Source: an uncultured Planctomycetia bacterium
GTDB lineage: Bacteria; Omnitrophota; Gorgyraeia; 2-02-FULL-51-18
Assembly (NCBI GenBank): GCA_964606485.1
Contig: CAZSGP010000005.1
Span: 139,649-203,648, forward strand
Reading direction: 5' to 3'
Length of the DNA stretch: 64,000 bases
Shown here one piece after another: positions 26,380 through 60,100 of the stretch. Each line of letters starts with the position of its first letter. Positions within the stretch are counted from its first letter, which is position 1. Under the pieces are notes generated by a model. That model was given only the letters and a program-made list of their open reading frames with translations, had not been told where the DNA came from and did no database searches. Position numbers and translations under genes: made by a program.

Positions 26380-26381
26380 AC

Positions 26382-32686: not shown

Positions 32687-33144
32687 TTCTTTTTGAACAC
32701 CTTTCTTGAAGGGGCTTCCATTTTGTTGATTTGATTCACGCGCCGTGCATGACGACCGCCCTCGAACGTAGCCGACAACCAACTCTTAACAATCAATTCC
32801 GGGTCGTCGAGCACATGCTCTGAGCCTAAAACTAAAATGTTGGCATCATTGTGTTGGCGGGAGAGCTCAGCGACATTTTTATCGTAACAAATCGCGGCGC
32901 GCACTCCCGGAACTTTGTTGGCCGCCATCGCCATTCCGTTTCCACTTTTGCAGATTAAAATTCCAAAATCCGCTTTTTTATTTGAAACGGCAAGTGCTAC
33001 TTTTTTAGCAAATTTTGGGTAGTCACAAGATTCTGCGGAGTTCGTCCCGAAATCGACCGTTTTGTATCCTTTGGAATCAAGCCACTCTTTAATTTCATTT
33101 TTTAGCGAGAACCCGCCGTGATCTGCGCCCAATGCGATTTTCAT
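32683..33144 (-). CDS. rpiB: Ribose-5-phosphate isomerase B
   Basis: 153 aa. [15 protein letters not shown]...[14 protein letters not shown]. Confidence 0.85.
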
Positions 33145-33605
33145 AAACTGCCTCCTTTAACCACGCCTTCCAAGCATTCGCGAATCATCTGCAAAACATT
33201 CTTATAAAATTGGGGCGACATATGAATAGGGTCGGGGATGCCCGCAAGCTCCACCCGCTCGTGCTCGCGGGGTGAAAACTCCGTTAACAGTTTCACTTTT
33301 TTCGCGGCCTGCGGTGACAATCGCAGAATAAAATCTCGGTGCATGCGGTCCATCACAAAAATGGCGTCCGCCGCCTGAACCATAGCCGCTGTCAAACGAC
33401 GGCTTTGATGATCCGAAATGTCCACTCCTTCATCGGACATCACGTTGACCGTTTCGTCCGTCGGGCCGTAGCCATCAGAGGCGCTGATGCCCGCCGAGGA
33501 CACTTCAAACTCTCCCGGGCGACCCTCCACCATCTTTCGGAAAAGCCCTTCCGCCATGACCGAGCGACAGCTATTTCCGGTGCAGACAAATAAAATATTC
33601 TTCAA
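33141..33605 (-). CDS. Low-molecular-weight protein tyrosine phosphatase
   Basis: 154 aa. P-loop LFVCTGNSCRSVMAEG (CX5R) and a DP motif. Confidence 0.8.
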   Translation of the reverse strand: MKNILFVCTGNSCRSVMAEGLFRKMVEGRPGEFEVSSAGISASDGYGPTDETVNVMSDEGVDISDHQSRRLTAAMVQAADAIFVMDRMHRDFILRLSPQAAKKVKLLTEFSPREHERVELAGIPDPIHMSPQFYKNVLQMIRECLEGVVKGGSL

Positions 33606-42673: not shown

Positions 42674-45600
42674 TTAGGCCGCTACCTGTGTGGTGTGAAG
42701 CGCGAGAATACTTAAGATGAGCCGGGTATTAAAGACCTTTTCAGGTTCGAGTAACCTAAACCGGTTACCCGAAAAGTGAACGTCCACTAGCTTCTGGAGC
42801 AGTTCTGGAAGCGATTTTGGATCTAAATTTTTAGACAGCGCAATCACGGTCAAAAGATAAAATGCTGAGGAGGACCCATCCACCTCACCGCGCTCGACTT
42901 CGGCGTAAGGCGCCGCACTTGAAAATTGAAGCGCCTTGGCGCGATCCGGAAAATACAACGTTCCCACATTTAATTTTTCGTTTTCTAGTGAATTTAGATC
43001 GGCACTAGGCTTAAACGACAGTTTCACTCCGCTCTGGGATAATTTCTGCAAACGATTTTGAATGGATTCGGCTTGATCACTCGACGCTTCACCGTACAGC
43101 ACGAGTTCGAGCAAGCGACCTTTGACGTGATCAAACTCAAGCGACGAATTGAGAATACTGGTTAAGCTTTCCAAAGCCTTTTGTGTTTTTAAATTTCCAT
43201 TCGCATCCAAGAAAAGTTCCATCGGGACGGGGATTGTTCCCGTTTGACCCGGAGCGACTTTCGCGGAAATAGAATCAGCGACCGCTTTCACGAATGCTTT
43301 TGATTCCTCTATACTTAAATCTTCCAATTGAGCTTCAATAGAATTCTTCGCCTGCGAAGAAAGGCGCTGAGCCTCTGCTAAATCCGCCACTCCGCTTTCA
43401 AGAACCGGATAATTTTCGAGTTTAAAATTAGAATTTATTTCTGAAAGCGGCGCCGTGCGAATCTCAACCGCTTCGGCAGACTTAAGCGTCACGAGCGTTA
43501 CAAAAGCTCCTGTTAAAAGAGGAAAGAGTTTGGGGAATGCTCCGGCCTTGTGAGAGGCGGCAATGCGCGCGCCTGAAATTTTAAGCGGCATCACACTCAG
43601 CTCGGCATGATTGGATAACAAGTTTAACTGAAATTTAGTTTGGCCCCCTTCTTCCCGTAGAAATTTTTCTAGCCTTTTTTCGTAACCTTTTTTTGTGGGC
43701 TCGGTAATTTTGAGCTCTAGTTTTGTACCGGGATTCCTTTGGCTTGTGATGGTAATCGTGTGCACGATCCCGCTTTGAACCAGTCCACGAAGCTCGCTCA
43801 ACGTTTGGTCGAGGGTTAGATTGCGTTTTTCGGAAAGACGGGCGGCATTTGGGGTGTCTATAAGATTTCGATATTCATTACCAACTTTTTGCCCCTGATT
43901 GATCGTTCCATTGGTCGATGCGTTATCCCTAATCTGCCAAACTCCATTGATGAAGGATAAATGCACATGCTCTCCAGAAACACGAGGGTTATCATCCGTC
44001 ACAATATCGTTGTCAAAACCACGGCCAATCTTATAGACCGCCTGCTTAAACCCATCAAGATTATAAAATTTCTGATCTTTAGTTCTCCATAAAAATAATC
44101 TATATCCGTAAATTTGGTAGATGAAAAATTCGTTGGCCGCCGCCAGCGTGAAAGCCGGACGAGACGTCGAAGCAACAGGAACCGTTTGCGCTGGAGGGGC
44201 GGCAATCCGCATCGTTGACTCAGGTACAGGCCCAAGCCATTGTAGCGTTGTCTCCTTAGAAGCATCTTGCGCTAAAAAATTAAGGCTACAGTTGCCGTTT
44301 CCATTGTTGTGCACACTCACCTGGAATCCGTATCGAAATGGTTTTCCGAGTTCAAACGCTAAAGATGGAGCCGTCGGCCTAAAAGCGCCTTTATCATAAT
44401 CTTGAATATAAGCGTGTATGCCGGCACTGTCTTGTTTATACCAAATTTTATAAACAGCCGATCCAACCCGCACCCAAACGTCTCCCATAAATGGCGCATT
44501 CTGAATAGATAGAGGCTTGACACTGCGCGCCGGACTCTTCAACTCGCGGATCCTGCCAAAGTATTCTTTAAGCATTTGCCGAGTTTTGATGTCCTCCATG
44601 TCCACCAACTCTTCTAATTTTTCTTTAGCCTGAATAACCCTAATTTCATCTGGAGTCATCGCGACCCCAATAAACGATTTTTTTGTTTCAAAAAAATGAA
44701 CTGCGTTTAATACATCTTGCGCGGAGTATTGAAGTCCAAAAAGACTGGCGCGAATTTCAGCTGGTTTTAAAGGCGGATCGATTAATCGCAGGACACGCGC
44801 GCAAAGATGTGGGTCTGTTTCATCAAGACCCTGCGTTTTGAAAACAGTTAGAATCGTGGCCATGGCAGGCGCATTGCGCATAACATTGGTGACACCTCTT
44901 AAACCTGCCGATCTAATAAGCTCTTCCCGTATTTTTTCAAATTTATTCGCGGGATCCAAAATTTCCTGTTGGGTTTTTGGTCTATGCGTTAAAAGTGTTG
45001 AGGCAATCACTTTGAGTCGCCTATCCAGCTCTGCTGGTGCCAAATCAGCCAACCGCGATCCTTTAACCTTGTCGCGGGTAAAGCCCGTTTTACTTTGATT
45101 ATCTTTTTTGAATTCGATCATTTCTTCATATGTCTTAAGACCGGGCTTAAGGATAATTTTGTCTCGTCGTTCATTCGGAATCACAAAAATATCCCCATCG
45201 AGAATATGCTGTGAAAGTCCAGGAACTGTGAGCAACTCAATCGGATTTGCGACAACAGACTGATCAATGGCAAAACGAATGTAATAGTCCTTATTGGTTT
45301 TTCTTAAATCCTTCACCAATTCGACATATGCGAGTGGGGTTCGCGAAACACTGTAAAGCTTTCCTTCAAAAAATTGGAGCAAACCCATCTCCAAATCTCT
45401 TTGGACTTCCTCTGAGCTGATTAAAAATCCAGGAGCTCCTTCAATCTCAAAGCGCCTTAGGTCACCGGCCCATTTTTTAAATGCTTCTATTTCAATTTTT
45501 ATTTGTTTGGGTTTCGTTGCGGATTGAACGTGAAGCGCATAATCCTCTGGACTCATACCCGAAAAACGGAAATCCGCGTTGGAGCTCCCTACTACAAACC

Positions 45601-48600
45601 CTCTTAAGATGTCTTTGGCCGCTTGTACATAATTAACGCTAAGATCTGCATCGGGTATTTTAACGGGCTTGCCTTGATGGTAACGCACCCTATTGTCGAT
45701 AAAAAAATCGGAGTTAGCTTTTCTTAATTGTCTGAGATAGGTTTCATAGTCATTCGCAGATTTTCCGATGAGGAACAATGATCCATCGGAATCAATATCC
45801 AAAATTCCTCTTTCTAAGTCTCTAAAGGCCTCGGTGTAACTGGGTTTTACACTCCCTTTATAATCCACAATCTTTTCCACGAAGCCGTAGCGAACCGAAG
45901 AGCTGCTCCAATTTCCGCCCAAAGAATAATAATGTAAAAAGCAAGCGGCCGCCGACTCTCGTTGCTCGTTTTGCAAAAGCGAAGCTTTTAGCTTCAAGCT
46001 CATTCCCCTGGGACCGCTGGAATAATACTCTAACTCTGCATTCGTACCGACGACACGCAAACGCGCCTGAGGATGTAAGAGGTAACACCGGCCTTTTGCA
46101 AAGTACCTGAATACGGGCCACCTAAAAATATTTTTTTCTTTCGGGTTTGTTATGCTTGAGTCATGCAACTCATAAAATATTTTTTCGGTGTTGTAATCTG
46201 CTTCCGCTGAAAGCCGCTCTTGTGCGCCTGGTTTGAACGGCTCTCCAATAATGGCGCATTCTGCCGCATTTCTTAGTGCGATAAAAGCCCTGTGTGCCTT
46301 GCGGTTGGACGCTCTCTCGCGCACTCCCCGATTGGGCTCAGTAAAAGATTCAGGGTCCTGATAAACATCCCAATGAAAACCGTTGCTAAAAAAAACTTTT
46401 CTTTTGATCTTGCCTTTTGACACACACTCAAATTCCAATGCGATAGGATTGGAGGGCGAGCCATCCCCCACATAAGCTTTGCCGGACAGGACATTAAGCA
46501 CGAATTTGGTCGGAAAATTTCCCGCCTTTCCTCTGGGTGCGACGAGCAAATCACCCTTTTTATCTGCCGTCAGCCTGAAATTGTCTCGGATGGCTTTTTC
46601 ATTATTAAGCTCAATAACTAGGTCGCCGAGCGCTTTGCCATTTAAAATTTTGGTGTGGTCCGCCGGCTCCTCGTCGGTGTCAATGGAGTCTGACACACTA
46701 AGCAATTCTTCCCGCATTGTAAAAGCGCTTTCCATGCCAGGTAAAGGGCGCCATCCCTCAAACGCAACCTGAGAATAAGTCCACTTAGTTTGCTCAATCT
46801 CCAAAATATCGAAGCTATCTCCATTAATACTCAGCGTTCCATTTTTTTCGTTAAACAAGTAATCCGCTTGTATCTGCTGATTATCGGAAACGAGTGCTCC
46901 TAGATCGGTTTGATTCGCCTGTACAAAATTCAATAAAAGCCCATTGTCGTGAGGTTTCACACTGATAGGACAAATAAGCAACCTTTCGATTTTGCGTCCG
47001 CTTTTTTTTCCTTCCAATGTTATCCAAATAAGATTTTTCCCATCTGACGCTCTCACCCAGGATGAGTAAATCGTTGAGCTGGGAAGAGAAGTTAGGCGAG
47101 CCCCCTGTGGGGGAGTTGTTTTAACCTTACGTGCGTCGCTCGCTTTTTGAAGCACGCTGAGCTCGAACATCAGCTTAAAAAATACCGGTCGCACCAAATC
47201 GGCATTTTGACCCTTATACTTTTTTTTCTCCATACGTACTTTATCTCTGCGAATGAGAAGGGTTACGAGTTCTTTTTGATTTTTGCAATCCAGAACGCGC
47301 ATCAACTCCGACAAATCACTCGCAGAAACTCCATCTAAGCCCTTCGCTAATTCGTCTATTTTCCAGGGCGTGAAAGCTTCAATTTCACTTTTTTCTTTTT
47401 TCGTAAAGATACCGGGGTTTACCATCCAACGCGCTTTTTTATCGTGCTGGTCCTCTTCAAACCGCTTGATTTCGTCGGTCGAATAAAAAGATGAGTTTTT
47501 GTGCGCCGCGGCTAGAACAATGAGCCCTGTCTTCAAAACCGAGAGGGCATGCTCTTGGTTAATGAGTCCGCCCAAAACATATTGCTCAATAATTTTTTCA
47601 TAATATTCTGTAGCGTTGCTGTCCTTTAAGCGTCGCTGCATGGTTTCTTCGTGTGCTTTGACAGTTTCCAGCACACCGGGAATTTTTAGAAAATTTTTTA
47701 GGTCTGCCTCGGTTACACGGTAGCCCCCTAGTAAATATTGGTTCAGCAGTTCGATAGCGTTGGGCAAATAATCTGTTTTGCGCACTCCCTTTAAATCACT
47801 CATCAAATGTTCGGGGTTATAGTCCGGATGCATGAAGAGAAGAAGGGTGTGAAGAAGCAGCCACCGCCTGCCCGATGCTGTTTTTCCATCCCAGGCCATA
47901 GCATCCACGGCAATCTTGGCATACTTGGCTCTCCGATCGGGCTCTAATTCAACGTAACTCTGGTAAGCATTGGATTGCAGCGTGAGAATACTGATCTTAT
48001 CTTTGGCTTGATTTCCCACGAGCGCCATTTCAACGCTAGAAGCCGCATAAAACGCGTTAGGATTTAACGTAAAACCTTTCTTATCTTTAAGCGCTTGGAA
48101 AATCTTTCGCGTTAATTCGAGCGCAAAACCATCGTCTATCCGGTTGTCTACTCGAATGAGCTCTTCGTTGTCAAAATTGAACACTATTTGCCTGGGCCAA
48201 TTCTGGTTGTCATCAGAATCGTCCGCGGATCTACCCTTCACGTAAAGACGACGCGAGGCGGCCGTCACTAAAAGAGTGATATAGTCTTCCAAGTCGCTGC
48301 CCTTCATAAGAATTAAGCGCGCGCCTTGAGTATGCGCCAAAATATCCTTCACCGCGTTTTCGCGTTCTTTGGGATTGTCTCTTAAAGAAGAAATGTAAGA
48401 TTCGATGGATGAGCGATTTGATTCGGAAAAACTGGCTAAACGAGCGCCTTTTACAGCTTTAAGACGCTCTGTTTTCTCGGACGATGCTAATGCAAGGAGT
48501 AAAAATGATTTTTCGAGGGAGTTCTGCTGAATATCACGAAAGATCTCCGAGGATTCAAGCATTTGATGGGCATGATTAATCTCATCTAGCCCCGAAAGCA

Positions 48601-51600
48601 ATCTAAATGAAAGAAAAACTAATTGGCGTTGAAAAGTCGATTTGTAATCAATATTGTTATAGGCGGGACTAGCATTCACATCCATCCAGGCTTCGTCAAA
48701 AACATTCCAAGTAAAGCAGTCCATTTTAACAATGGCTTCTATCGCTGGGGCAGCATCTCCCGCTTTTAAATGATCAATTAAATATGCATGGTTACCGTAA
48801 CCTTGAATAAAATAATCCAGCCATTGGGCCAATTCCTTGACGCTGCCCATTTCAACGGCGGCCCATGTGTATATCGCCAAGGTTTTAGGATCTGTTTTAG
48901 AAATTTTCTCAAGCTCCTGCTTAATTTTTTTTACGCCTTCAAAATTACCACCGGATTTTGCCAAGGCCAATACATAAGTCGCTTGTACCGTCGGTTCCAA
49001 AGAACGGAATTCTTCATCCATCGTTAACTGCGCAAAGTACTTTTTTACTTTTTCTAAACTTGAGTCGCTTTGCACTGCGGCCAAAGTGAGTATCGATCGC
49101 TCAAGGACTTCGTTAGGAAAAAATTGATCATTTGAAATTACACGATAAATGTCTTCGACCCGCTTTTCAGCCTCTTCAATAGCTGTTTGTCTATTGGGAT
49201 CCAAATCTGTCCATTGAACAGAACTAGAAGAGTTATTGTCGGGCCTTAGTCTCCGTTGCTGCGGATAAGGAAAAAAATCTGGAATTTCGCCACGTTTAAT
49301 TTTTCTTTGGAGATTAATCCAATACCCGTAGCGAATGATATCGGGGTGTTCTTTGACAAAACTCGCACGGTACGCCATCGGAATATAATCAAGAAACCAC
49401 TTCGGGAAAAAATCCAACGAAACACCTTGGTCGACATCGCTAACAGCCGAAAAATATTCCCCCAAAGACATGCCCTCAGAGTCTGAGACGCGCGTAATTT
49501 TTGGGAGAAAATGCATGTCCTCCAAATTTTCAAGATCATCAAAATCGTACAAAACGACACGTCCAAAATGAGTCACTCCAAAATTTTTTGGAAGCGCGTC
49601 CATTACGAAAATTCCGGCAGCAGCTAAATCCTTCAAGCAATAACCCCATTCTAGGACAGCTGCTGTTTTCTTTTCTTCGGGAACATCGGGATTATCCAGA
49701 AAAACATCCAGCGGCACCAATTTACGCTGTGCAAAAACCTCCTTGAAGATAACCTTTCCGTCCTTAAGGATTATGTTGGATGGCTCCCGCTCACCTTGGG
49801 GTGTCGCGTGCTCAATCAACTCCTTTAAAAGAGCTGGGTCAAAGTCAGATTCTTTAAATTCTAGAACTTGAAGCGTTATCGGATTTAATGCGCGACCAAC
49901 ACGGTCCATCCCCTGCACTTTTCGGTACATGCGCTTTATAAATTCTCGGATATTAACGCCCCCCTCCTCTCGCTGAAGCAGGGATTTCTTTGATGTGCTC
50001 TCTCGCGCATTTTTGAAAACATACCCAAAAGTAGGAAGCACAAAAGTATCAAGAGCCATCCCCTTCACGCCGGTCGCCCACTGAAATTTCTCACCTGGAT
50101 TAGTCTCTAAATGATTCCGCAAATTATGGACTAACTCCAATTTAGCCGGATGAGCGAAACCAACCGCAGAATAAATGGATGAGGGGGATTTATTTGGAAT
50201 AATCGAATGGAGGAAATCCAATAATTCATGATAATAATTCATTCCGGTAACATGAAAATCAATTCGCGTGTAGCCAAAGATATTGCTAACGTCCGCCTCA
50301 TTCGTCAGAACCGCATCAACTGCAATCCCCTTTTCAGTCTTTACCAGCGCGATAACGAAAGGGACTATTTTTTTGTCTGTCCGGATGCGTCCTACTAAGT
50401 AAGCACCTTTGTTGCGAAAAAAAATCTTTTTCCATATTTCAATCGAACGAATGGTCCTAAAAACCTTTTCCTCTTGATAGCGGCGAATATCTTTCTCCAA
50501 CATTTCGGCGGATAATTTCGAGTCTCGCTCCAAGTTTTCATACGGCGCTTCCACAAATCCTGCATCTTTTAGAATTCTTGCGATCGTCTCCGGACTCAAG
50601 TCTTTGTAGACTCGATAATAACGGTGAATAACCCCTTCGCTGGCGTACTCAATAGGCGTATTGACGTCCTTAAAAATTCTCCGCTCTATGGAGTTAAAGA
50701 AAATGATAGCCAAATCGGAATCCGGTCGTTCGCCTAACCATAAACTATAAATTTTTTGTAACGCTTCCCACGATTTTTTGTCTCTTAAACGATCACCCAT
50801 TAGGGGGGCAATTTCCGCAATCACTTTTGTCAACGCATCACGGTATAAATTGAGTCGCTCTTTGGCATTTTTTTGGCCCTCTTCCCAGAGTGATAGCTCA
50901 AATACTCTCTGAGCTCTTGCTGTAATTTCGGCATATCTGGATTGGTACTCATCGAAAGCCTTTAAAATCAGACGAACGATATGATCCGGTGAGACATTCG
51001 AGCGCTGATCGGAGACATAAATTGGCTTTGAAATACTTGATGATTCATCTCCGTTACCTTGAAATTCAGGCCGTTCCGCCAACCGCGCTCCACTCTTGGC
51101 TCTCCAATACCCCATCACTACCGTGGTCATGCCGTCTTTTTTGGGATAATCATTTTGGAAGCCGTCGACGGATTCGAAACCCGCCTCGTTTAAAATTCTT
51201 AGATAATTTTCTTTTTCGATCAGATACTGGTCCGAATAAAGATGGGACATGAAATACGCGGTCTCGAGTGTAGAACCTAAGTTACGCGCCGCAATTTGAG
51301 GGTTAATAGAAAGAAGATCTATTGTCAGAAGTCCGAACCGAGATGAAAGACTAGCCCACGATTTAAAGTGCTCGTACAAGTTTTGCTCCAACACGCCATT
51401 TGGAATAATTCGACCGCGATGCGTGTAAATGGCTCTTGAATCGGTGCGACGCCTTGCCGCGGCCTTGCGGTCTTTGGGTATCACAAACGGACGGTTATGG
51501 TCTAAAAAAGAGCGGACGTGTAAAAGATCCTGGGCTTTTGCGTCGAAAGGAGCTAGAAGCTCGTTCAAATTTTTTTCATAGAGAGCAGGGTCGTTGATAT

Positions 51601-54600
51601 TGCCAAATAACACCTGATGGGAAATATCCGCTTGGACGAGCCGCTCGTGCGTAATTTGGCGCGCTTCTTCGTTGTAATCTGCTCCAAACACGCGAACTGG
51701 ATGAGCCTCTAAATGAAGCCCGCGCGCGGTTTCGTTTTTAATCACGCCGTAAATAAATTCGAGGAGCATGCCGTTTCCACAACCCATGTCGGCGATGCCT
51801 TTGGGCTGTTCGTTGAGTTCTGCTTCTGAAAGAGCTGCGTCGCGGCGTCCGAAAATTTTAATCACGTTTTCCCGAAGATCCCGGAAATAAGTTTCATGGG
51901 AATTGCCACTGCCTTCTACGTTCATGGGCCGGTTGACGAGAAGCTCTTCTTTGTCCGGACCGCGGCGGTCAAAGTATTTTTCAATAAAATTTCGCTCTGC
52001 AAAAAATAAATAATACAAATTTGATAATTCAAAAGACGGCAAGTAGGAAACAGGAACTCCATAAGACCAGGCCTTGGACAGCGCGTAGAGCCCGCGCGGA
52101 GTAAACGAAACGGTGTCGTCGTTTATTTCAACCCAATGAAGCCGCGACAAAAAGTTAAACGCAATTTCAAGGCGCCGAGTTTGCCCGCCACAATCTTTTA
52201 TTTTAAAAGGACCTCTTAAATCAATAAGACCCCGGTCGGCCTTTTTGCGGATTTCAATCATGAGAGGTCCGGTGAGCATTCCGATCACAAGCGGACCGAT
52301 TAATGGAAGAGATGTTGATTTTAAAATGGCGCTGTCACACAAAGAAGAAAATTCCGCAGTTTTAAGCAAGTCCGCGGCCGGCGGATCGCGGGGATTTGAA
52401 AATAAAAATTCATCCATTTTTTTGAGTGTGGGAATAAAATCCACAAATTTTTCAAAAGATTCCGCAACTCCAAACACTTCGCGGCCCTGTTCAGTGACTT
52501 CGATTGTCATGGCCCCTGTCGCGCGCTTTCCAATGCGCCTGACCCACCCTTGGGCTTCCAAACCTCGGATCGCCCCGTGCAGATAACCCATATTGACGCG
52601 AACTTTACCCTGGCGGAGTGTGCTTGCAATGTCGCGCACCGTTACCGTCTTGCGGGAATCGTAGGTTTCATTTAGAAGCTCTAGCACCTTTTCACGGCGA
52701 AAAAATTCTAAAGTGGAGGCAATGCCAATGCCATCCGTGTGCCTAAAAATTTGCGGCAGAACTTCTTTTTGAAGTTCTTTATTTTTTCCAATTTCATTGA
52801 GAATTTTTTTGTTGGAGGATTTGACGGGTTCTGCGAGACGGGCGCCGGAGCTGTAGTGCAAACCCAAGATTTGAATCCCTGGGTCTCGAACGATCACCGG
52901 TAATCCGTTGTTTAATAAATCAAGTTTCGTATGATTCCCATAAAGCTTCCGATTGGCTGCATCAAAAACAACCACCTTCTCTTCGTCGGCTAAGTGCTCA
53001 AAAAAATCTGCGAAGTGCTTGTCTCCCTTGCCCAACGTACCGGCGGATTCTTCCGGATTAAATCGAGAACTTCCGTCAACGCTCACAATAAATCGCCGTC
53101 CGTCAATTTTGACCATAAATACTTTGACTGAAGCGTTTGTCGAACCCAAAGAAACGGAGGACTCATAAGCTTCTAAAAATTTAATGAGCCGCTTACGAAA
53201 CCACTCGCTCACAATTGTCCGGTGAGCGTCTTGCTGAAGAATAGGGTCTTTGGAGACATAGTTGCGCAACACCGCCAAGGGATCTTCACGGACTTCACAG
53301 AGCCGGTCAAATTGGCGCAAGTATTCCGCAGCCGTAATTTTTGCTTTGAATACATGACTTAAAAGCACTGAAGCAGCCTGGTAACTGCCAAAATGTCTGG
53401 GACTTTTATGAAAAAGAACGTTCGCCCATAGAAACGTGTTTAAATAAGCTTCCGCTGAACCATTTGCCGGGATCAGCGTGTTTCCAGACCCAGGGACGTC
53501 ACGATCCACAACCAGTCCTTGTCTCTGAATGATGCCCTCTAGCCATACCGGCCCCACCTGCAAACCGCCGTTGACCGAGATATCCGATTCGGTGTATTCC
53601 GCAGCGCCCGTGCCGCGATCGGAGTCCTGACATTGTAAATCAGTGGCGGCAAACATGGTGACCTGCTCGGGAGTGCTCCAGCCCGTAGCGACTATCAGAC
53701 GACCAGGACCTTCTTTGTTCACGTCTTCGGCAATTCTGCGCAGATCATTGTGCATGTGCTGTGTGGTCGCTTGCACATTTCCAAAATGCACAACTTGAAC
53801 GCCGGCTTTAACCAATTTGCGAATATTTTCTTCGGTAAAAGCCCGGAGCCTTCCAGCTTTTTCATCCACCAATCTTCCGTAATAGCCCAGCACCAGTTGG
53901 TCCGGGTTTAAATTTTTAATCTCCGGATCAAGTGCCATGAGCTTTGGGTCCTGTGAAACGCGGCGCTTGGCTTCTTTTTTAATCGCTAAAACTTGGTCAA
54001 TCGTTGGCGCATCCGGATCCGCCGTGTCTCCAAAAAGTTCAAGGCAGATGTTTCTAAAAAACTCGTTTGAAATTTGGTGATTGTCGCCATTCGTAACGGA
54101 GATCAGCCGAATGTTTCGATCAATCGGCGCCACTTCCTCCCGATGCACAGAGCTCACGGCATTTGTTCCATCAGCTGTGCGCAAACCGCCGCTGGTGTAA
54201 TCAATATCCGACAACCGGTCCATGTACCCCAGCCACTCATATGGCACATCCCCCTTCATGACGGTTGAACGCTCTGCATTGGAATAACGTCCCCGGTTGC
54301 GGTACGTGTGAGTGGTCATCCAAACCAAGGCATTTTTAAGAACACTTCCTTCATGCTCATACAAAACTCTCTTATAGAGCGGCAACAGTCCGCACTGCCC
54401 GTCATTGGCAAATAAAATCGCGTCTTTGAAAAGATTTTTAGGGGATTCTTTCTTACGTCTATTTTCTAAATAAGCCGTTAATTGCAGGGATGCTTTCGCA
54501 AAAAATTCGGTGAAACCCTGCCAGCTTGCAGAACCATACTCAGGGCCATAGCGGTAAAGGAGCTTGGTGTAAAATTCATGCTCATCTTTAATAAAATAAG

Positions 54601-57130
54601 TTTTAATTCCAAATCGGTTGTTGCCGCTGTAAACATGCACTTTCACATCTTCGTTCTGCACTCGAATTGAAAAATCCAAAGAGGTTTCATGCTTTAAATT
54701 CTCAATTGGAATCGGTAGATTGGCGTAATCAACCAGCACGAGCTCGTTCTTTGGGTTTAATTTTTTAGGGTAATACGGTTCGATGGTGACAATATCGGTC
54801 TTGTCGCCGACCAACTCTTTCATTTTAACGGTATGGTACTGTCCGACGCGTCCTAGACCTCCCGCCAAAAGCCAGGTTTCCGGAGAAATATAGTAAATGG
54901 TCCGCCCTATTAAATGAGACGCATGAGAATCAATCCAGTTGTCCACAACTTTTGAAGTGAGCATGAGACGAATGGTATCGGCTAAAGGCCGTCGCAATAA
55001 TCCGTTATTCGCCTGTTCTAAAGCAACTAGCAGCTTTTCTCGATTTGGGGTGCTTAAAAGTGAGACTCCTCTCAAAACGGGCCAACGACTCTCAACAGGA
55101 TCCAGCGGCCAATTTTCAGTGACATCGGCATACTCTTCAACGGCTACGCGAAACTCGTTTCGGGAAGCCACCGAACCTGAATCCAAGGTCTTTAAAATTC
55201 TCTCGAAATCACGGCGAATATATTCTGCATCGTCAATTTTGACAGCCATCAGGCGCGGGCGTACGGCCAAGGCATAGGTAGATCCTTGCTTATGCAAAAG
55301 TCCGAGCGACACGAGTCGTTCTAAAATTTTTTCGGCGCTTTCATCATCCCCCTCCAATCCAAATGCTTTAAACTTTCGCGCCGCATGCATCAGCACCTTT
55401 CGCAGGGCAATAGGTTTGCCTTCCAAATGAAGTAAAAAGGACCCGACAATATGGATCTTAAGCCAATCCGATGTGGACTCTCCCACACCCTCGACTAGCG
55501 AATCACTGTAAGGAACTATAGAAAGCCGCGCGCCACTCTGACGCACCAAATTAAGATCCGGACTCAATTCCCGTTTTAATCCTTCGAAATACGGCGTCCC
55601 CTCAATCAGCGGCGGGCTAATCGTATTTTTTGAGAGGAGGATTTTTTCATACCGGTCTTGATTGGTTTCGTAGTGCACATTCGGCTGAACGACGGCGTAC
55701 GCGTAACCATTTTGCTTAAAAAGTTCTTTCAGATGCGCGGTGTGGAAGCCTCCCGTTATAAAAATGACTGGCTCATTTTTATAACGGGAGTCCGCCGACG
55801 CTTTAGTGGCGGACTCCGCTCCTAAATATTTTTTAATATTCTCAATGAACGCTTCGTCGCGCTTACTGGCCACTTCATAAAATCGCTCAGCAGTCTTTAA
55901 GCTTTCTTCGATGATCGGATCAACCTGCAAAATTTCGTCGTCGCGACCCAAGTCATAAAGTTCACGGTTTAAAAATCCGAGAATCGTCATCATTTGAAAA
56001 CGAGGATCCTTTCGAAGAGTGAGGTACGCTTCATAATCGGCGCTTGAAATTTGAAGGGTTAAAAGATTTTGAGCCTTGGAAAGAATGCGGTCACTTTCGT
56101 ACAGTGCGCGAGCGTCTTCGGTGGAAAGAGCCTCCTGGTAAATGGCGTCTTGAAGATGATCGAGCTCGCCCAAAAGCGCCGAAAAATCAACCGTCGCATA
56201 GGCGCTTAGATAATCCACATAAGATTTTAAGTTGGGATAACGAGAAAGATCGCTTCCTTTATAAACGTCGAGGTCCAGCGCTGGACTTTTTGTGAGCTTA
56301 TGAATTTCCGGAGCGTCTCCCCCCATCTCTACTCGTTCAGCCAGCCAAGCTGTCTGTTCGTTTTGTGCTTTTACAAAATCAATCGACGACTCTGCTTCCT
56401 TTAATTTTTGAAGACTTAAAAAATTAGGGTACGCCAGTAAACTTAAGGAATATTTTTGAGCTGCCGAGGATAAGCGATCAAATATCTGTGTCAAATGCTC
56501 ATCTTTTTTTCCTAGAGTTTCGTCCAATTCTAAAAGATCGGCCGGATAGAGCTTCCGCTTGAGCGACTGTGCGCGCTGGACCATTTCATTGAGTGCTGCG
56601 AGCGATTTTTGGCGCGTTGCCGCAGACTCCGAATAAACTTTCAGACCTTCCTTATATAAGCGGTCGTCTTCGACACCCTGAAGCTTGAAATCCAAATCTG
56701 AAACTAGACTCAGATACTCCGCTCCATTCATGGATCCGTTATGCAGGTATTTTTCAGCAACTTTTTGACGAGTCGAACGAGGCGCAAGACTTCGGAGCGC
56801 GTCGAGTGAATCATCTTTTGAACCGCCCTCTAAAAAAACAGTTTTAATTTTTTGGGTTTTAATTAAATTTTCGAGGATGGCGGAAATATTTTTTTGCGCG
56901 GAGACGTTGGTGTGTGCGTCTTGGATGTGAATGATGAATGGTGCTGATGCAGAGTGAACTTCTTCCACTCGCCCGAAAGCCGGATCAATTTGAACTAGCG
57001 TTGCCTTCGGAGAGGAAATAGAAAACGAGAGACCGCCGGGTGCGGCCACTGATAAATCGGTGATCCCGAAGGACGCACAGAGAATGAGTGAAGTAGCTCT
57101 TAGAAAAAATGGGTATTTTTTATATTTCAT
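42674..57130 (-). CDS. Giant 4818-aa multi-enzyme protein. In order: signal peptide, N-terminal module shared with gene A, GlgA-like GT-B glycosyltransferase, class I SAM methyltransferase, AceK-like kinase/phosphatase, about 1400 aa of unknown function, FHA domain, C-terminal region. Punctuated by GARL[AS] motifs.
   Basis: A single uninterrupted ORF in the track. Domain motifs were read directly from the translation (see the sub-features below). The start ATG follows the upstream giant-gene stop by 12 nt, with SD AAGGG. Confidence 0.8.
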   Translation of the reverse strand: MKYKKYPFFLRATSLILCASFGITDLSVAAPGGLSFSISSPKATLVQIDPAFGRVEEVHSASAPFIIHIQDAHTNVSAQKNISAILENLIKTQKIKTVFLEGGSKDDSLDALRSLAPRSTRQKVAEKYLHNGSMNGAEYLSLVSDLDFKLQGVEDDRLYKEGLKVYSESAATRQKSLAALNEMVQRAQSLKRKLYPADLLELDETLGKKDEHLTQIFDRLSSAAQKYSLSLLAYPNFLSLQKLKEAESSIDFVKAQNEQTAWLAERVEMGGDAPEIHKLTKSPALDLDVYKGSDLSRYPNLKSYVDYLSAYATVDFSALLGELDHLQDAIYQEALSTEDARALYESDRILSKAQNLLTLQISSADYEAYLTLRKDPRFQMMTILGFLNRELYDLGRDDEILQVDPIIEESLKTAERFYEVASKRDEAFIENIKKYLGAESATKASADSRYKNEPVIFITGGFHTAHLKELFKQNGYAYAVVQPNVHYETNQDRYEKILLSKNTISPPLIEGTPYFEGLKRELSPDLNLVRQSGARLSIVPYSDSLVEGVGESTSDWLKIHIVGSFLLHLEGKPIALRKVLMHAARKFKAFGLEGDDESAEKILERLVSLGLLHKQGSTYALAVRPRLMAVKIDDAEYIRRDFERILKTLDSGSVASRNEFRVAVEEYADVTENWPLDPVESRWPVLRGVSLLSTPNREKLLVALEQANNGLLRRPLADTIRLMLTSKVVDNWIDSHASHLIGRTIYYISPETWLLAGGLGRVGQYHTVKMKELVGDKTDIVTIEPYYPKKLNPKNELVLVDYANLPIPIENLKHETSLDFSIRVQNEDVKVHVYSGNNRFGIKTYFIKDEHEFYTKLLYRYGPEYGSASWQGFTEFFAKASLQLTAYLENRRKKESPKNLFKDAILFANDGQCGLLPLYKRVLYEHEGSVLKNALVWMTTHTYRNRGRYSNAERSTVMKGDVPYEWLGYMDRLSDIDYTSGGLRTADGTNAVSSVHREEVAPIDRNIRLISVTNGDNHQISNEFFRNICLELFGDTADPDAPTIDQVLAIKKEAKRRVSQDPKLMALDPEIKNLNPDQLVLGYYGRLVDEKAGRLRAFTEENIRKLVKAGVQVVHFGNVQATTQHMHNDLRRIAEDVNKEGPGRLIVATGWSTPEQVTMFAATDLQCQDSDRGTGAAEYTESDISVNGGLQVGPVWLEGIIQRQGLVVDRDVPGSGNTLIPANGSAEAYLNTFLWANVLFHKSPRHFGSYQAASVLLSHVFKAKITAAEYLRQFDRLCEVREDPLAVLRNYVSKDPILQQDAHRTIVSEWFRKRLIKFLEAYESSVSLGSTNASVKVFMVKIDGRRFIVSVDGSSRFNPEESAGTLGKGDKHFADFFEHLADEEKVVVFDAANRKLYGNHTKLDLLNNGLPVIVRDPGIQILGLHYSSGARLAEPVKSSNKKILNEIGKNKELQKEVLPQIFRHTDGIGIASTLEFFRREKVLELLNETYDSRKTVTVRDIASTLRQGKVRVNMGYLHGAIRGLEAQGWVRRIGKRATGAMTIEVTEQGREVFGVAESFEKFVDFIPTLKKMDEFLFSNPRDPPAADLLKTAEFSSLCDSAILKSTSLPLIGPLVIGMLTGPLMIEIRKKADRGLIDLRGPFKIKDCGGQTRRLEIAFNFLSRLHWVEINDDTVSFTPRGLYALSKAWSYGVPVSYLPSFELSNLYYLFFAERNFIEKYFDRRGPDKEELLVNRPMNVEGSGNSHETYFRDLRENVIKIFGRRDAALSEAELNEQPKGIADMGCGNGMLLEFIYGVIKNETARGLHLEAHPVRVFGADYNEEARQITHERLVQADISHQVLFGNINDPALYEKNLNELLAPFDAKAQDLLHVRSFLDHNRPFVIPKDRKAAARRRTDSRAIYTHRGRIIPNGVLEQNLYEHFKSWASLSSRFGLLTIDLLSINPQIAARNLGSTLETAYFMSHLYSDQYLIEKENYLRILNEAGFESVDGFQNDYPKKDGMTTVVMGYWRAKSGARLAERPEFQGNGDESSSISKPIYVSDQRSNVSPDHIVRLILKAFDEYQSRYAEITARAQRVFELSLWEEGQKNAKERLNLYRDALTKVIAEIAPLMGDRLRDKKSWEALQKIYSLWLGERPDSDLAIIFFNSIERRIFKDVNTPIEYASEGVIHRYYRVYKDLSPETIARILKDAGFVEAPYENLERDSKLSAEMLEKDIRRYQEEKVFRTIRSIEIWKKIFFRNKGAYLVGRIRTDKKIVPFVIALVKTEKGIAVDAVLTNEADVSNIFGYTRIDFHVTGMNYYHELLDFLHSIIPNKSPSSIYSAVGFAHPAKLELVHNLRNHLETNPGEKFQWATGVKGMALDTFVLPTFGYVFKNARESTSKKSLLQREEGGVNIREFIKRMYRKVQGMDRVGRALNPITLQVLEFKESDFDPALLKELIEHATPQGEREPSNIILKDGKVIFKEVFAQRKLVPLDVFLDNPDVPEEKKTAAVLEWGYCLKDLAAAGIFVMDALPKNFGVTHFGRVVLYDFDDLENLEDMHFLPKITRVSDSEGMSLGEYFSAVSDVDQGVSLDFFPKWFLDYIPMAYRASFVKEHPDIIRYGYWINLQRKIKRGEIPDFFPYPQQRRLRPDNNSSSSVQWTDLDPNRQTAIEEAEKRVEDIYRVISNDQFFPNEVLERSILTLAAVQSDSSLEKVKKYFAQLTMDEEFRSLEPTVQATYVLALAKSGGNFEGVKKIKQELEKISKTDPKTLAIYTWAAVEMGSVKELAQWLDYFIQGYGNHAYLIDHLKAGDAAPAIEAIVKMDCFTWNVFDEAWMDVNASPAYNNIDYKSTFQRQLVFLSFRLLSGLDEINHAHQMLESSEIFRDIQQNSLEKSFLLLALASSEKTERLKAVKGARLASFSESNRSSIESYISSLRDNPKERENAVKDILAHTQGARLILMKGSDLEDYITLLVTAASRRLYVKGRSADDSDDNQNWPRQIVFNFDNEELIRVDNRIDDGFALELTRKIFQALKDKKGFTLNPNAFYAASSVEMALVGNQAKDKISILTLQSNAYQSYVELEPDRRAKYAKIAVDAMAWDGKTASGRRWLLLHTLLLFMHPDYNPEHLMSDLKGVRKTDYLPNAIELLNQYLLGGYRVTEADLKNFLKIPGVLETVKAHEETMQRRLKDSNATEYYEKIIEQYVLGGLINQEHALSVLKTGLIVLAAAHKNSSFYSTDEIKRFEEDQHDKKARWMVNPGIFTKKEKSEIEAFTPWKIDELAKGLDGVSASDLSELMRVLDCKNQKELVTLLIRRDKVRMEKKKYKGQNADLVRPVFFKLMFELSVLQKASDARKVKTTPPQGARLTSLPSSTIYSSWVRASDGKNLIWITLEGKKSGRKIERLLICPISVKPHDNGLLLNFVQANQTDLGALVSDNQQIQADYLFNEKNGTLSINGDSFDILEIEQTKWTYSQVAFEGWRPLPGMESAFTMREELLSVSDSIDTDEEPADHTKILNGKALGDLVIELNNEKAIRDNFRLTADKKGDLLVAPRGKAGNFPTKFVLNVLSGKAYVGDGSPSNPIALEFECVSKGKIKRKVFFSNGFHWDVYQDPESFTEPNRGVRERASNRKAHRAFIALRNAAECAIIGEPFKPGAQERLSAEADYNTEKIFYELHDSSITNPKEKNIFRWPVFRYFAKGRCYLLHPQARLRVVGTNAELEYYSSGPRGMSLKLKASLLQNEQRESAAACFLHYYSLGGNWSSSSVRYGFVEKIVDYKGSVKPSYTEAFRDLERGILDIDSDGSLFLIGKSANDYETYLRQLRKANSDFFIDNRVRYHQGKPVKIPDADLSVNYVQAAKDILRGFVVGSSNADFRFSGMSPEDYALHVQSATKPKQIKIEIEAFKKWAGDLRRFEIEGAPGFLISSEEVQRDLEMGLLQFFEGKLYSVSRTPLAYVELVKDLRKTNKDYYIRFAIDQSVVANPIELLTVPGLSQHILDGDIFVIPNERRDKIILKPGLKTYEEMIEFKKDNQSKTGFTRDKVKGSRLADLAPAELDRRLKVIASTLLTHRPKTQQEILDPANKFEKIREELIRSAGLRGVTNVMRNAPAMATILTVFKTQGLDETDPHLCARVLRLIDPPLKPAEIRASLFGLQYSAQDVLNAVHFFETKKSFIGVAMTPDEIRVIQAKEKLEELVDMEDIKTRQMLKEYFGRIRELKSPARSVKPLSIQNAPFMGDVWVRVGSAVYKIWYKQDSAGIHAYIQDYDKGAFRPTAPSLAFELGKPFRYGFQVSVHNNGNGNCSLNFLAQDASKETTLQWLGPVPESTMRIAAPPAQTVPVASTSRPAFTLAAANEFFIYQIYGYRLFLWRTKDQKFYNLDGFKQAVYKIGRGFDNDIVTDDNPRVSGEHVHLSFINGVWQIRDNASTNGTINQGQKVGNEYRNLIDTPNAARLSEKRNLTLDQTLSELRGLVQSGIVHTITITSQRNPGTKLELKITEPTKKGYEKRLEKFLREEGGQTKFQLNLLSNHAELSVMPLKISGARIAASHKAGAFPKLFPLLTGAFVTLVTLKSAEAVEIRTAPLSEINSNFKLENYPVLESGVADLAEAQRLSSQAKNSIEAQLEDLSIEESKAFVKAVADSISAKVAPGQTGTIPVPMELFLDANGNLKTQKALESLTSILNSSLEFDHVKGRLLELVLYGEASSDQAESIQNRLQKLSQSGVKLSFKPSADLNSLENEKLNVGTLYFPDRAKALQFSSAAPYAEVERGEVDGSSSAFYLLTVIALSKNLDPKSLPELLQKLVDVHFSGNRFRLLEPEKVFNTRLILSILALHTTQVAA
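43870..44060 (-). other. FHA (forkhead-associated) phosphopeptide-binding domain within the 4818-aa protein
   Basis: YKIGRGFDNDIVTDDNPRVSGEHVHLSFINGVWQIRDNASTNGTINQGQKV matches the FHA consensus (GR..D..L.D..VSR.HA.I......W.I.D..S.NGT.VNG). Confidence 0.6.
49250..50975 (-). other. Full-length AceK-like (isocitrate dehydrogenase kinase/phosphatase) domain within the 4818-aa protein
   Basis: ILKAFDEYQSRYAEITARAQRVFE, IFFRNKGAYLVGRIRTDKKIVPFVIAL, FGYTRIDFHV, MDRVGRA and DALPKNFGVTHFGRVVLYDFDDLENLEDMHFLP align with E. coli AceK (ILQGFDAQYGRFLEVT.., [67 protein letters not shown]). Confidence 0.65.
51100..51900 (-). other. Class I SAM-dependent methyltransferase domain within the 4818-aa protein
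   Basis: Motif I GIADMGCGNGMLLEF and an acidic motif II VRVFGADYNEEA. Confidence 0.55.
53500..54900 (-). other. GT-B fold glycosyltransferase domain (glycogen/starch synthase GlgA-like) within the 4818-aa protein
   Basis: N-terminal YYISPETWLLAGGLGRVGQY (compare GlgA ..SSE..PFAKTGGLGDV). C-terminal half begins LGYYGRLVDEKAGRL (compare vGRLteQKGidl), then ATGWSTPEQVTMFAATD...GTGAAEY...VNGGLQ. Confidence 0.5.
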
Positions 57131-57142
57131 AACCCTTAATTG

Positions 57143-60100
57143 TTACGCCGCTCTCTCCGCCGCGCGAGCAACATTGGCAGAGCGAATTTGTTCGGAAATG
57201 GCTTTCACGAGTCTGGCCATCACTGTGCGGCCACCCACGTTAACGGCTGTTGTTCCGAAGCGATTTCCAGATCCCAAAGACAGACCCGCCGACACGACAT
57301 CGTCGAGTGACAACTGTGAAACCGAGCCTTCCACGCCATAAACGAGCCAGCGTAAATCTCCATCTTTCAAATTTGGAGGAAGCTCTTCGTATCCAATGTT
57401 ATCTGCGTTACGAAACGCGATCACCATTTGCTTCAGTGCTGAAGGATTCAAATAAGGATTTGATCCCGCTTTGCGGCGCAGGGCTTTTAGGAGCGAATGA
57501 GCTAACGTTTGTCCATCCGTCCTATCGAAACAGAGCGTGTGAACCTGCGTTAAACGAAGGTGTTCGATTTCCCGATCTATTTTCTCTGCTAAGGCAGTGC
57601 TTGGCGTGACGAGAAGAATGGGCTGCCGGCTTGTCCTGATCTTTCGAAGGGCATGTTGGATGCTCGCCGGGTCGCTCTTTAAATCGGCCGGTAAAATCAT
57701 GGGGAGAATTTCCGAGGGCGCTTGAAGATTCACCACGCCTTGCGCAGAAAGCCCGGAGCGCACTGACTGTAAATTGGCTTGATGAACGGTCTCACTCGAA
57801 GCAAACGTGTTGAGATCTGCGCGAAGCGCTGCGGCATTGGAAATATTAAATTCATTTGCAGAAAATTGAATCTCATTCGCCTGCGCAGAAGGAACTTGAG
57901 AAATTGAAAATAGGATTAATTTCCCGGCTAGTAAAATCGGTACGATGGCTTTTTGGAGAGACCCTAGCGAAAGCGCAAGCCGGGAGCCCATCTCTTCTTT
58001 GGTCGCGGCATCGTCTGTTCCTTGTTTTTTAGAGGCCTGCGCGGCTTGGCGGCGAGTAGCACCCTTTAGCCTTGCTTCCACTCGTAGCGCTTTGGACGAA
58101 CGCTCCATTTTTCCGGAATCCGAAAGACGGGAGCCTGACGTTGCTTGAATTTCAAGAAGCGCTTCTTTAAAATTGGCCAGATGGTCCATTCCCTTGAGCG
58201 TGCGCCCGGCTTCAAATTCTTTTCTGGCTTCGCGACGTTCCTCGTTTAATTTTTCCAAAAGTGCCTGAATTTTTTTGTCACCCTGAACAATTTCAAATTG
58301 AGGGTTGAGACCCTTATCGATCCGGCTCTGCAAGGTCTTGTCTCGAATCAGCCTGGGCTCATTTTCCTTAACAAAAACACCGCTAGTTACTTCACCAAAA
58401 AGAATAATCCCTTGTTTGTATCCTCCGAGTGTTTCACGACGCTTGGCCACGATTGCTTCAAATTCTTTTTCATCAATGGCCAAAATATCCAACACCCGGA
58501 CAATTCCCGTTAAATCTTCCGGCGCTTTTGCCAAATCAGAAAATGCTCGTTCGGCCTCGTCAGAATAAACAAGCCACAACTTTTGCTCATGCTCTAAAAG
58601 TGAGGCGATTTGCTTGAGATTCGAAATTTCAAAACGCCATTCTTCAACGGTACCTTTAGAGTTCACCATCGGCATTTGAGCTAAATGAACTTTGTCTTTG
58701 AGTGTAGCCGCAACGCGTCTAGCAATCTCTTCGGTCGGCACCGACGCGGGCGTTAACAGATGGATGGGTGCGTAGACATGATCCCGGGTTTGTCCAAAAT
58801 AAACGAGTGTTTCGAGCGGTTTCGGGTGTTCAAAACCATTTTTCTCGCGCTCGATATAAACGGTAATCTCCGCCTCCCGACCGTCCGGATGCGAGGCTAC
58901 TACTTTCTTAGTCACAATCTTCGAGTCTTGCGCGAGGCGTGCGCCGGATGGACGTGCCAGCGAAGCGTCGACATCTTCTATGAGACCCCCAGTTTTAAAA
59001 TAGGTGATAAGGCCACGCGGGGGAAATCCTACAAGAACTAAACTCATCAAAGCATCGGTGATTTTTTTAATATCTTGCCACGACTTGGTCGAAAAAGTAG
59101 CTGACTCTCGGTGGCCCGGTATTACCTGCACCGTAACCGTTGTTAAAATATTATTTTTATCTTGGGCGTTCTTTATGTCGCGTGAGACCCAAAACTCGAA
59201 ATCACCGTACGGGGATCCGGCGACACCCCTACTCTCTGTTTCCTGATCGGCGAGGCGGGCGGCACTGAATGTGCGATACATTTGAATATACTCCTCCGCT
59301 CCGCCACCCTCAATCCAGTCGGGGTTGTAACGGGCAACTTGCAACAAATATTCAAAATATTGATCCGTTTGCTTGACGTTCAAAAAGTCAGCAACACGAT
59401 CTAATATTTGCTGTGCAGAAATCTGTCTTTGTTGGTCGGCTTCTTTGCCAGTATTTGCTTCAAAACCATCCACCAACTCAAGCGGCGTTCCGTTGGCTTC
59501 TTTAAAATCTTGAAGCCCGCCTCGGCTTGTCGCAATGACAGCATCTAGCAGTAAAGCCGCTTCCTGATTGCTGATTCCACCGGGCTCATCAATGGACGGC
59601 ATGAAGAAAAGATCCGAGCCCGCACAAATTTGCTTCGCTAAAACCGGATCAAATTTATTTTTAAATACAAAGCGGCCCTGATATTTAGGGTGCGCCTCTA
59701 AAAATGTCTTTAAAAATTGTTCTTGTTCTTTTCCGAGAGTATCTCCCGCTGTCCCTAACACCGCCATCTGAACGTTCATGCCGGAATCATTGCGGGTATC
59801 CAAAATTGCTTCAAGCAATGTTCGCCCATCACTTAAAACCGTCGAAAGAATATTCAATCCTTTTTGCTTAACAATTCGCGTCACGACACCCACAACTGTG
59901 GCATTGGCGTCTTGAGCTAAGCCCAGCTCCTGCTGAAGTGCTAATTTATTTTTTTGTTTCCAATCAGCGAGCGCTCTGCCGTCCATTTGGGCAAGCGGCT
60001 TGGACGGCTTTACAAAACGGGGTCCTGCCAAAGCTTTTAAATTTTCCGGTCGATGAGACTCAGCTTTGATTCGGTTATAAACAGGAGAAATTTTATAACT

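Follow-up and report, generated by a model that had tools for sequence, protein, structure and literature searches.

The stretch of 64,000 nucleotides analysed here (the window; contig CAZSGP010000005.1) comes from an assembly named as an uncultured Planctomycetia bacterium and placed by GTDB in the Omnitrophota. At 42674-57130 on its minus strand it carries giant ORF 1 (giant 1), an open reading frame (ORF) of 4,818 amino acids (aa) with an AAGGG ribosome-binding site of its own, 4 nt upstream of the ATG. Giant 1 is a chain of approximately ten protein-sized, whole-protein units: a leader, a GT5 glycosyltransferase, an AprA-like methyltransferase, a homologue of the isocitrate dehydrogenase (IDH) kinase/phosphatase AceK followed by an extension, several orphan units and an FHA domain. 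Its features are the following.

55532-57130, minus strand: signal peptide (aa 1-30) and leader module (aa 1-533), from homologues and invariant residues
55520-55534, minus strand: junction GARLS, aa 533-537, at the leader/GT5 border (motif)
52847-55519, minus strand: unit 2, starch-synthase-like GT5, aa 538-1428 (Pfam PF08323, E 1.3e-13)
52832-52846, minus strand: junction GARLA, aa 1429-1433 (motif)
51092-52831, minus strand: unit 3, AprA-like (AprA_N, WH_AprA, Methyltransf_36), aa 1434-2013 (Pfam)
51077-51091, minus strand: junction GARLA, aa 2014-2018, upstream of AceK (motif)
49235-51076, minus strand: unit 4a, complete AceK, aa 2019-2632 (Pfam, phmmer, AlphaFold2)
49409-49510, minus strand: divergent substrate-recognition loop of AceK, aa 2541-2574, 34 aa (alignment; low predicted local distance difference test, pLDDT, in the model)
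48449-49234, minus strand: unit 4b, helical extension of 262 aa after AceK (no junction motif between AceK and extension)
48434-48448, minus strand: junction GARLA, aa 2895-2899 (motif)
48311-48325, minus strand: second junction, GARLI, aa 2936 (motif)
47090-47104, minus strand: junction GARLT, aa 3343-3347 (motif)
45047-45061, minus strand: junction GSRLA, aa 4024 (relaxed motif)
43868-44035, minus strand: FHA domain PF00498, aa 4366-4421 (E 1e-9; GR...SxxH...NG signature)
43832-43846, minus strand: junction AARLS, aa 4429, 8 aa past the FHA end (relaxed motif)
43559-43573, minus strand: junction GARIA, aa 4520 (relaxed motif)
43475-43543, minus strand: moderately hydrophobic segment AFPKLFPLLTGAFVTLVTL, a possible membrane anchor (read from sequence; under the 1.6 Kyte-Doolittle threshold)

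An earlier note on this DNA, made without database searches, had proposed a complete AceK homologue at 49250-50975 inside the 4,818-aa protein, with an FHA domain downstream, and profile searches bear out both proposals. The two Pfam domains of the family match over essentially their full length, AceK_regulatory (PF20423) at aa 2053-2343 (profile positions 2-300 of 302, E 4.9e-66) and AceK_kinase (PF06315) at aa 2347-2624 (positions 1-256 of 256, E 2.4e-52), together occupying 49259-50974 of the window. Using phmmer, the stretch was aligned end to end with Escherichia coli AceK (3EPS; residues 9-569 of 578, E 3e-56). The AlphaFold2 (AF2) model of the unit, with a pLDDT of 86 and a predicted template modelling score of 0.85, superposes on 3EPS, 3LCB and 6K5L at template modelling scores of 0.80-0.89 (E 1e-37, Foldseek).

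The catalytic loop quoted in the earlier note was found as KNFGVTHFGRVVLYDFDD. At 86 alignment columns that are at least 95% conserved among 119 stand-alone AceK homologues, the unit is identical in 75, and the other 11 mostly carry conservative changes (V>A, M>L, D>E, Y>F). K2373, D2511, K2515, N2516, D2529 and D2531 of giant 1 correspond to K336, D457, K461, N462, D475 and D477 of the E. coli enzyme and are all kept. Asp457, Lys461, Asn462, Asp475 and Asp477 are regarded as catalytic/Mg residues of AceK. Lys336 is an ATP-site residue (PMC9138534). The score against the NCBIfam equivalog NF002804 was 420.5 bits, below the cut-off of 488. Judging by these residues and by the predicted fold, the AceK unit is complete and probably catalytically competent.

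In its full-length two-domain layout, catalytic/ATP-site residues and predicted fold, the unit resembles E. coli AceK (P11071; 3EPS, 3LCB), from which it differs in being embedded in a signal-peptide-bearing chain with a 262-aa extension, in its recognition loop of 34 rather than 27 aa, and in having no aceBA or icd nearby. The view that AceK is largely confined to Proteobacteria proved too narrow, as close full-length matches are named Thermoanaerobaculia, Chloroflexota and Calditrichota.

The remaining recognisable units of giant 1 likewise have the dimensions of whole proteins. Unit 3 (aa 1434-2013) corresponds along its entire length to stand-alone proteins of 520-600 aa. A full-length counterpart of the GT5 unit (aa 538-1428), with 46% identity, occupies aa 1661-2553 of a giant in another locus (L015), where it is bracketed by GARLA at 1656 and 2553. 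The region downstream of AceK is an orphan: aa 2625-3343 as query found no homologue among 5.8 billion proteins, the 262-aa extension has no detectable homologue, and the units beyond AceK had no match among the 86 loci compared. The 34 residues from the upstream junction to the AceK domain (aa 2019-2052) contain no Met, and separate translation of the AceK unit is therefore ruled out.

These units are separated by a short peptide with the consensus [SA]-G-A-R-[LM]-[AS], which splits the giants into protein-sized pieces. Giant 1 contains six exact GARL copies (aa 533, 1429, 2014, 2895, 2936 and 3343) against 0.15 expected. Across the window, in-frame GARL occurs 13 times in giant 1 and a second giant ORF at the window end (giant 2) and once in ORF3, a third large ORF at the window start; the remaining 36 ORFs lack it. 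Codon usage varies synonymously at each of the five motif positions, which argues for selection on the peptide and not on the DNA; a DNA-level repeat as the origin of GARLA was rejected on the same ground. A logo built from 438 sites showed A in 70% and S in 15% at the fifth position, which lay outside the search pattern, and S or A in 45% at the position preceding Gly. Motif density is 1.65 per 1,000 aa in leader-bearing ORFs as opposed to 0.22 in the other ORFs of the same loci, with a median spacing of 263 aa (interquartile range 138-445 aa).

The position of the motif with respect to domains is equally regular. None lies inside any Pfam domain of giant 1, giant 2 or the AceK-bearing protein P0139, and several stand 5-30 aa from domain ends, for example 9 aa past the methyltransferase and 8 aa past the FHA domain. 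Exact bracketing of AceK is seen in P0134 (6,037 aa, with leader; GARLS 796, AceK 811-1374, GARLS 1380) and in P0139 (AARLA 81, AceK 92-684, GARLA 689). Other enzymes are bracketed as well: a complete phosphoglucose isomerase (PGI) stands between GARLA motifs in locus L004 (3393-6788), as does the methyltransferase unit of P0132 between junction motifs, and in giant 2 an ACP domain (aa 577-646) sits within an 88-aa unit exactly between GARLA 561 and GARLA 654 and a glycogen-synthase-like GT5+GT1 unit between AARLA 958 and 1571. The motif also varies by lineage, with six to eight copies each of a GARM-A form and no GARL in L043 and L026, and an AAxSLG form bracketing isocitrate lyase (ICL), malate synthase (MS), phosphoenolpyruvate carboxykinase (PEPCK) and AceK in L088 and P0131. 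In the sequences compared, conservation and shuffling between giants were shown to act on the inter-motif unit, which would as such be their unit of evolution. No description of the motif was found in the literature searched. Separately, P0128 (2,461 aa; TauE, AceK and methyltransferase) has R-S-E-L-R five times near unit borders, perhaps another junction variant.

The second shared element is the leader (aa 1-533). The giant 1 N-terminus is signal-peptide-like, K/R-rich with a 12-residue hydrophobic core and the sequence SVA|AP, a feature conserved in the leader family. The signal peptide is followed by a domain with the signature IHIQDAHTN...E...GVE...ITGGFHT, whose invariant positions are IQDAH73, E101, E154, R424, D425 and GGxH463. 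Residues H73, E101, E154, R424, D425 and H463 are 97-100% conserved in 77 leader copies, and this conserved set suggests an enzyme.

Four leader homologues were present in the protein collection, one of them named Candidatus Omnitrophica. A scan of genome contigs located the leader at the head of 517 loci in GTDB genomes, a single genome holding several of them. The titles of the best 80 of these 517 loci comprise 40 Omnitrophota/Omnitrophica, 36 'uncultured Planctomycetia' (third-party metagenome-assembled genomes, MAGs) and 4 Eisenbacteria; records of the proteins P0124, P0132 and P0145 are also named Omnitrophota. The leader ORF usually reaches the end of the 10-kb flank (>3,800 aa), and the AceK HMM found no AceK in the first ~3,850 aa of the giants at the best 80 loci. 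In L004 the leader protein (P0122) is a separate upstream gene and has a transmembrane helix after its second GARLA.

Embedded AceKs are not confined to giant 1. Whereas a first, word-indexed homologue search returned stand-alone AceKs only (at most 41% identity), a limit of the word index, exhaustive HMMER searching uncovered approximately 19 clusters (at 50% identity) with a full AceK domain inside proteins of 775-6,037 aa. In a rough, unbootstrapped neighbour-joining tree the embedded AceKs and that of giant 1 fall in one deep half, together with a few stand-alone members. Nearly all embedded-clade proteins begin with a signal peptide or transmembrane segment, and nearly all embedded AceKs keep the catalytic residues, with losses in P0135 domain 1 and in P0268. 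One member, P0145 (MBF0385610.1), from an Omnitrophota MAG, is already named AceK at NCBI. P0126 (1,228 aa) has two complete tandem AceK domains, both with the catalytic residues.

In several of these relatives AceK keeps its classical metabolic company. P0140 (L087, 2870-17497) joins AceK, MS, ICL and an aldo/keto reductase in one 4,875-aa chain with almost no recognisable junction motif, and is effectively an ace operon as one polypeptide. In L088 (10001-22950) a leader-AceK protein (P0131, 1,165 aa) is followed by a leader-ICL-MS-PEPCK protein (3,060 aa), both with a signal peptide; the leader of the latter reads IQTAH, while IQDAH is kept in that of P0131. A stand-alone relative, P0009, adjoins aceA/aceB. 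P0140 and P0131/L088 share with giant 1 the deep half of the rough tree, an N-terminal signal peptide or leader and AceK as a whole unit, and differ from it in their ICL/MS/PEPCK partners, in the AAxSLG junction of L088/P0131 and in the near lack of a motif in P0140. The FHA domain of giant 1 was present in 0 of 10 other AceK-bearing giants examined, and FHA-AceK coupling as a conserved link was rejected on that ground.

Based on these findings, we propose that a complete, probably competent AceK-type kinase/phosphatase is one unit of a leader-headed, Omnitrophota-type multi-enzyme polyprotein, a reading to which we assign a probability of about 0.5. The junction motifs would be sites of processing, with cleavage between Leu/Met and the small residue that follows, or at the minimum would act as hinges between autonomous units, so that the AceK unit would work as an independent enzyme. 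Processing at the junctions would explain why the enzymes are intact and complete, why the junction co-varies by lineage and why units can occupy any position, and it agrees with a previous proposal of cleavage in Omnitrophota giants. As the leader, rich in invariant residues, is the only constant partner, we infer that it is the prime candidate for a processing or targeting activity.

Several observations weigh against this proposal. Cleavage at the junctions is a candidate process predicted from sequence, and no peptidase Pfam domain was found in giant 1 or giant 2, whether the whole chains or their units were searched. The fold match of the leader to hydrolases of the erythromycin-esterase type is weak (AF2 model pLDDT 74.8; Foldseek probability 0.57, with none at E<=0.001). 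With respect to the junctions, 13% of inter-motif spacings are below 50 aa, no motif directly follows AceK in giant 1, where the next is GARLA 2895, and none is obvious in the giants L069, L084, P0129, P0145 and P0203. The recognition loop of the AceK unit is divergent, and a survey of 176 complete Omnitrophota genomes reported ICL and MS in 0 of 176. Finally, the export predicted from the signal peptide is difficult to square with enzymes dependent on ATP, S-adenosylmethionine and nucleoside diphosphate sugars. In P0122 and giant 2 a transmembrane helix lies right after the first junctions (in giant 2 immediately after GARLS at aa 351), and such a helix would bring the rest of the chain back to the cytoplasm; giant 1 has no comparable helix until about aa 4530.

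A stricter form of the polyprotein proposal can be put forward tentatively, namely that these are true bacterial polyproteins in which the leader enzyme or a partner protease cuts [SA]-G-A-R-[LM]|[AS] (AAxSL|G in another lineage), freeing whole housekeeping enzymes including AceK. In a bolder version still, the freed AceK may act on the IDH of a host cell.

An alternative is that giant 1 remains an intact, membrane-tethered mega-enzyme, in which AceK phosphorylates a unit of its own chain or a recruited partner, the FHA domain reads the phosphorylated site and the junctions act as hinges or docking pegs. The occurrence of AceK and FHA within one chain is consistent with this, as are the failure of Pfam searches to reveal a protease domain in the giants, the divergent recognition loop, the fusion of the 262-aa extension to AceK without a junction, and published predictions that most long Omnitrophota proteins are membrane-associated. 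However, FHA domains bind phosphothreonine while the known AceK target is a serine (Ser113 of IDH), 1,740 aa and five junctions separate AceK from the FHA domain, which is missing from the other AceK-bearing giants examined, and a hinge needs no five-residue motif kept across species with lineage-specific variants. We therefore regard the intact mega-enzyme as unlikely.

More doubtful still is an exported effector polyprotein, which would be delivered to a host or prey, cut there after Leu in the manner of MARTX toxins, and whose AceK would switch off the victim's IDH or another target. Its attractions are the conservation across the leader family of a Sec-type signal peptide bearing AxA|A, the signal peptide or transmembrane segment heading nearly all embedded-clade proteins, a loop hypervariable in length and sequence as host-driven diversification would predict, and literature descriptions of Omnitrophota as host-dependent or predatory. 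The C80 cysteine protease domain (CPD) of MARTX and large clostridial toxins cuts after Leu and before Ala/Ser/Gly, and the Leu-then-small-residue junction resembles those sites. The cargo, on the other hand, consists mostly of central-metabolism enzymes (PGI, PGM, ICL, MS, PEPCK, glycogen-synthase-like glycosyltransferase and ACP) and not of toxin-like domains. Pfam searches of giant 1 gave no match to a C80 protease or to RTX/translocation repeats (whole chain E<=0.01, separate units E<=1), and no delivery apparatus is linked to the locus.

That the unit is a decayed, non-catalytic AceK-like scaffold, a structural filler of a giant surface protein, is very improbable: the equivalog cut-off was indeed missed, 11 of the 86 highly conserved columns are changed and catalytic residues are missing from certain embedded copies (P0135 domain 1, P0268), but here all six catalytic/ATP-site residues are kept, the changes are mostly conservative and confidence in the predicted fold is high. 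An operon of separate genes misread as one ORF through assembly or sequencing errors, which the equivalence of each unit to a whole protein might suggest, can practically be set aside, as the same unbroken architecture recurs in many independent assemblies and sequencing projects, the Met-free start of the AceK unit could not initiate alone, and the junction is a conserved in-frame peptide and not a stop/start region.

Within the polyprotein proposal, the substrate of the AceK unit deserves separate consideration. Residues 484-510 of E. coli AceK form the substrate-recognition loop that gives specificity for the IDH dimer (PMC9138534). The corresponding loop of giant 1, poorly predicted in the AF2 model, is 34 aa long, as compared to 27 aa in 73 of 94 stand-alone AceKs, and is 12% identical to these, against 32% over the whole protein. 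Loop variability distinguishes the clade as a whole: pairwise identity in the loop is 0.35 among stand-alone AceKs (0.41 for the rest of the protein) but 0.13 in the embedded clade (0.34 for the rest), where loop length ranges from 27 to 40 aa. In view of the divergent loop and the 262-aa C-terminal extension, the specificity may therefore have shifted, which is a real possibility.

Nevertheless, the most probable target, judging from the genomic associations, is still an isocitrate dehydrogenase, because relatives carry isocitrate lyase, malate synthase and PEPCK either in the same chain or in a neighbouring protein. In the same survey of 176 genomes IDH was reported in 165. The earlier note had proposed a repurposing of the fold for another substrate, on the ground that no icd, aceA or aceB lies nearby. 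This absence holds among the 39 ORFs of at least 150 aa in the window, and giant 1 itself carries no ICL, MS or PEPCK unit. The divergent loop, the equivalog score below cut-off and the reported lack of the shunt in Omnitrophota speak for a possible repurposing. Against it, relatives that carry AceK beside its classical partners argue that embedding alone does not mean a new substrate, embedding is not special to AceK since all enzymes recognised in these giants form complete units between junctions, IDH is reported to be widespread in the phylum, and the FHA link is not conserved.

Viral polyproteins and the MARTX/clostridial toxins offer the closest parallels to the architecture described here, with functional units in series and a short junction of Leu/Met followed by a small residue; they differ in that the cargo here is of a housekeeping type, that neither C80 nor another peptidase was found in giant 1, and that processing is deduced from the sequence. 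Multi-enzyme giant proteins of Omnitrophota have been described by West-Roberts et al. 2023 (bioRxiv 10.1101/2023.11.21.568195) and by Nielsen & Lui 2026 (bioRxiv 10.64898/2026.06.07.730766); cleavage of such giants has been suspected, and the 2023 paper stated that the cleavage points were unknown. As in those giants, a signal peptide or transmembrane segment and many unrelated enzyme domains share one chain, with PF08323, PF00534, methyltransferases and PGM recurring; giant 1 and its neighbour tile distinct Pfams in this way (signal peptide, GT5, AprA_N/WH/MT36, AceK and FHA in the one; ACP, GT5 and GT1 in the other). The published catalogues start at 10 kaa, whereas the chain in the window is 4.8 kaa, and the main texts of the two preprints make no mention of AceK, the ~530-aa leader or a GARLA-type junction.

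While AceK as a classical enzyme and the multi-enzyme giants of Omnitrophota are thus already known, nothing relevant on embedded AceK in giant proteins or on Omnitrophota polyproteins was found in the literature searched. As far as that literature extends, the embedded, signal-peptide-linked AceK clade with its divergent loop, the shared leader and the unit-delimiting junction motif are new; of these, the junction and the leader most merit further work.

Two further members of this protein family lie at the ends of the window.

57143-64000, minus strand: giant 2, at least 2,285 aa, its N-terminus beyond the window end, with 12 junction motifs (Pfam, motif)
2-3088, minus strand: third family member, with signal peptide, leader paralogue, AARLA, further units and GARLQ, running off the window start (leader homology)
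1604-3088, minus strand: leader paralogue of the third family member (leader homology)

The downstream units of the third member contain helix-turn-helix-like repeats. The neighbouring genes include purBQLFMDE, glyA, surA, hisG, ftsH and clpX as well as prs, glmU, bamA, lpx genes, dnaB and ribosomal protein genes. A low-molecular-weight phosphotyrosine phosphatase gene lies between purE and glyA (33141-33605, minus strand), with both the giant gene and the purine operon upstream of it. At 24631-29417 a divergent two-partner secretion (TPS) pair encodes a transporter of the ShlB/FhaC type together with a TPS-domain protein of 1,011 aa that contains a beta-propeller.

Textbooks present AceK as the first example of protein phosphorylation in bacteria, and it has been regarded as an enzyme that stands alone; this study describes an AceK clade whose members are systematically joined to preceding signal peptides and leaders within giants, sometimes with a whole acetate-utilisation set. 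The junction motif and shared leader provide a concrete rule for splitting Omnitrophota giants into units, a division that the 2023 study considered impossible for want of known cleavage points, and this rule makes the question of giant processing testable by simple proteomics or heterologous expression. If the stricter form of the polyprotein proposal is true, it would fill in the cleavage map that Omnitrophota giants have lacked and reveal in these bacteria a gene-expression strategy otherwise known from viruses.

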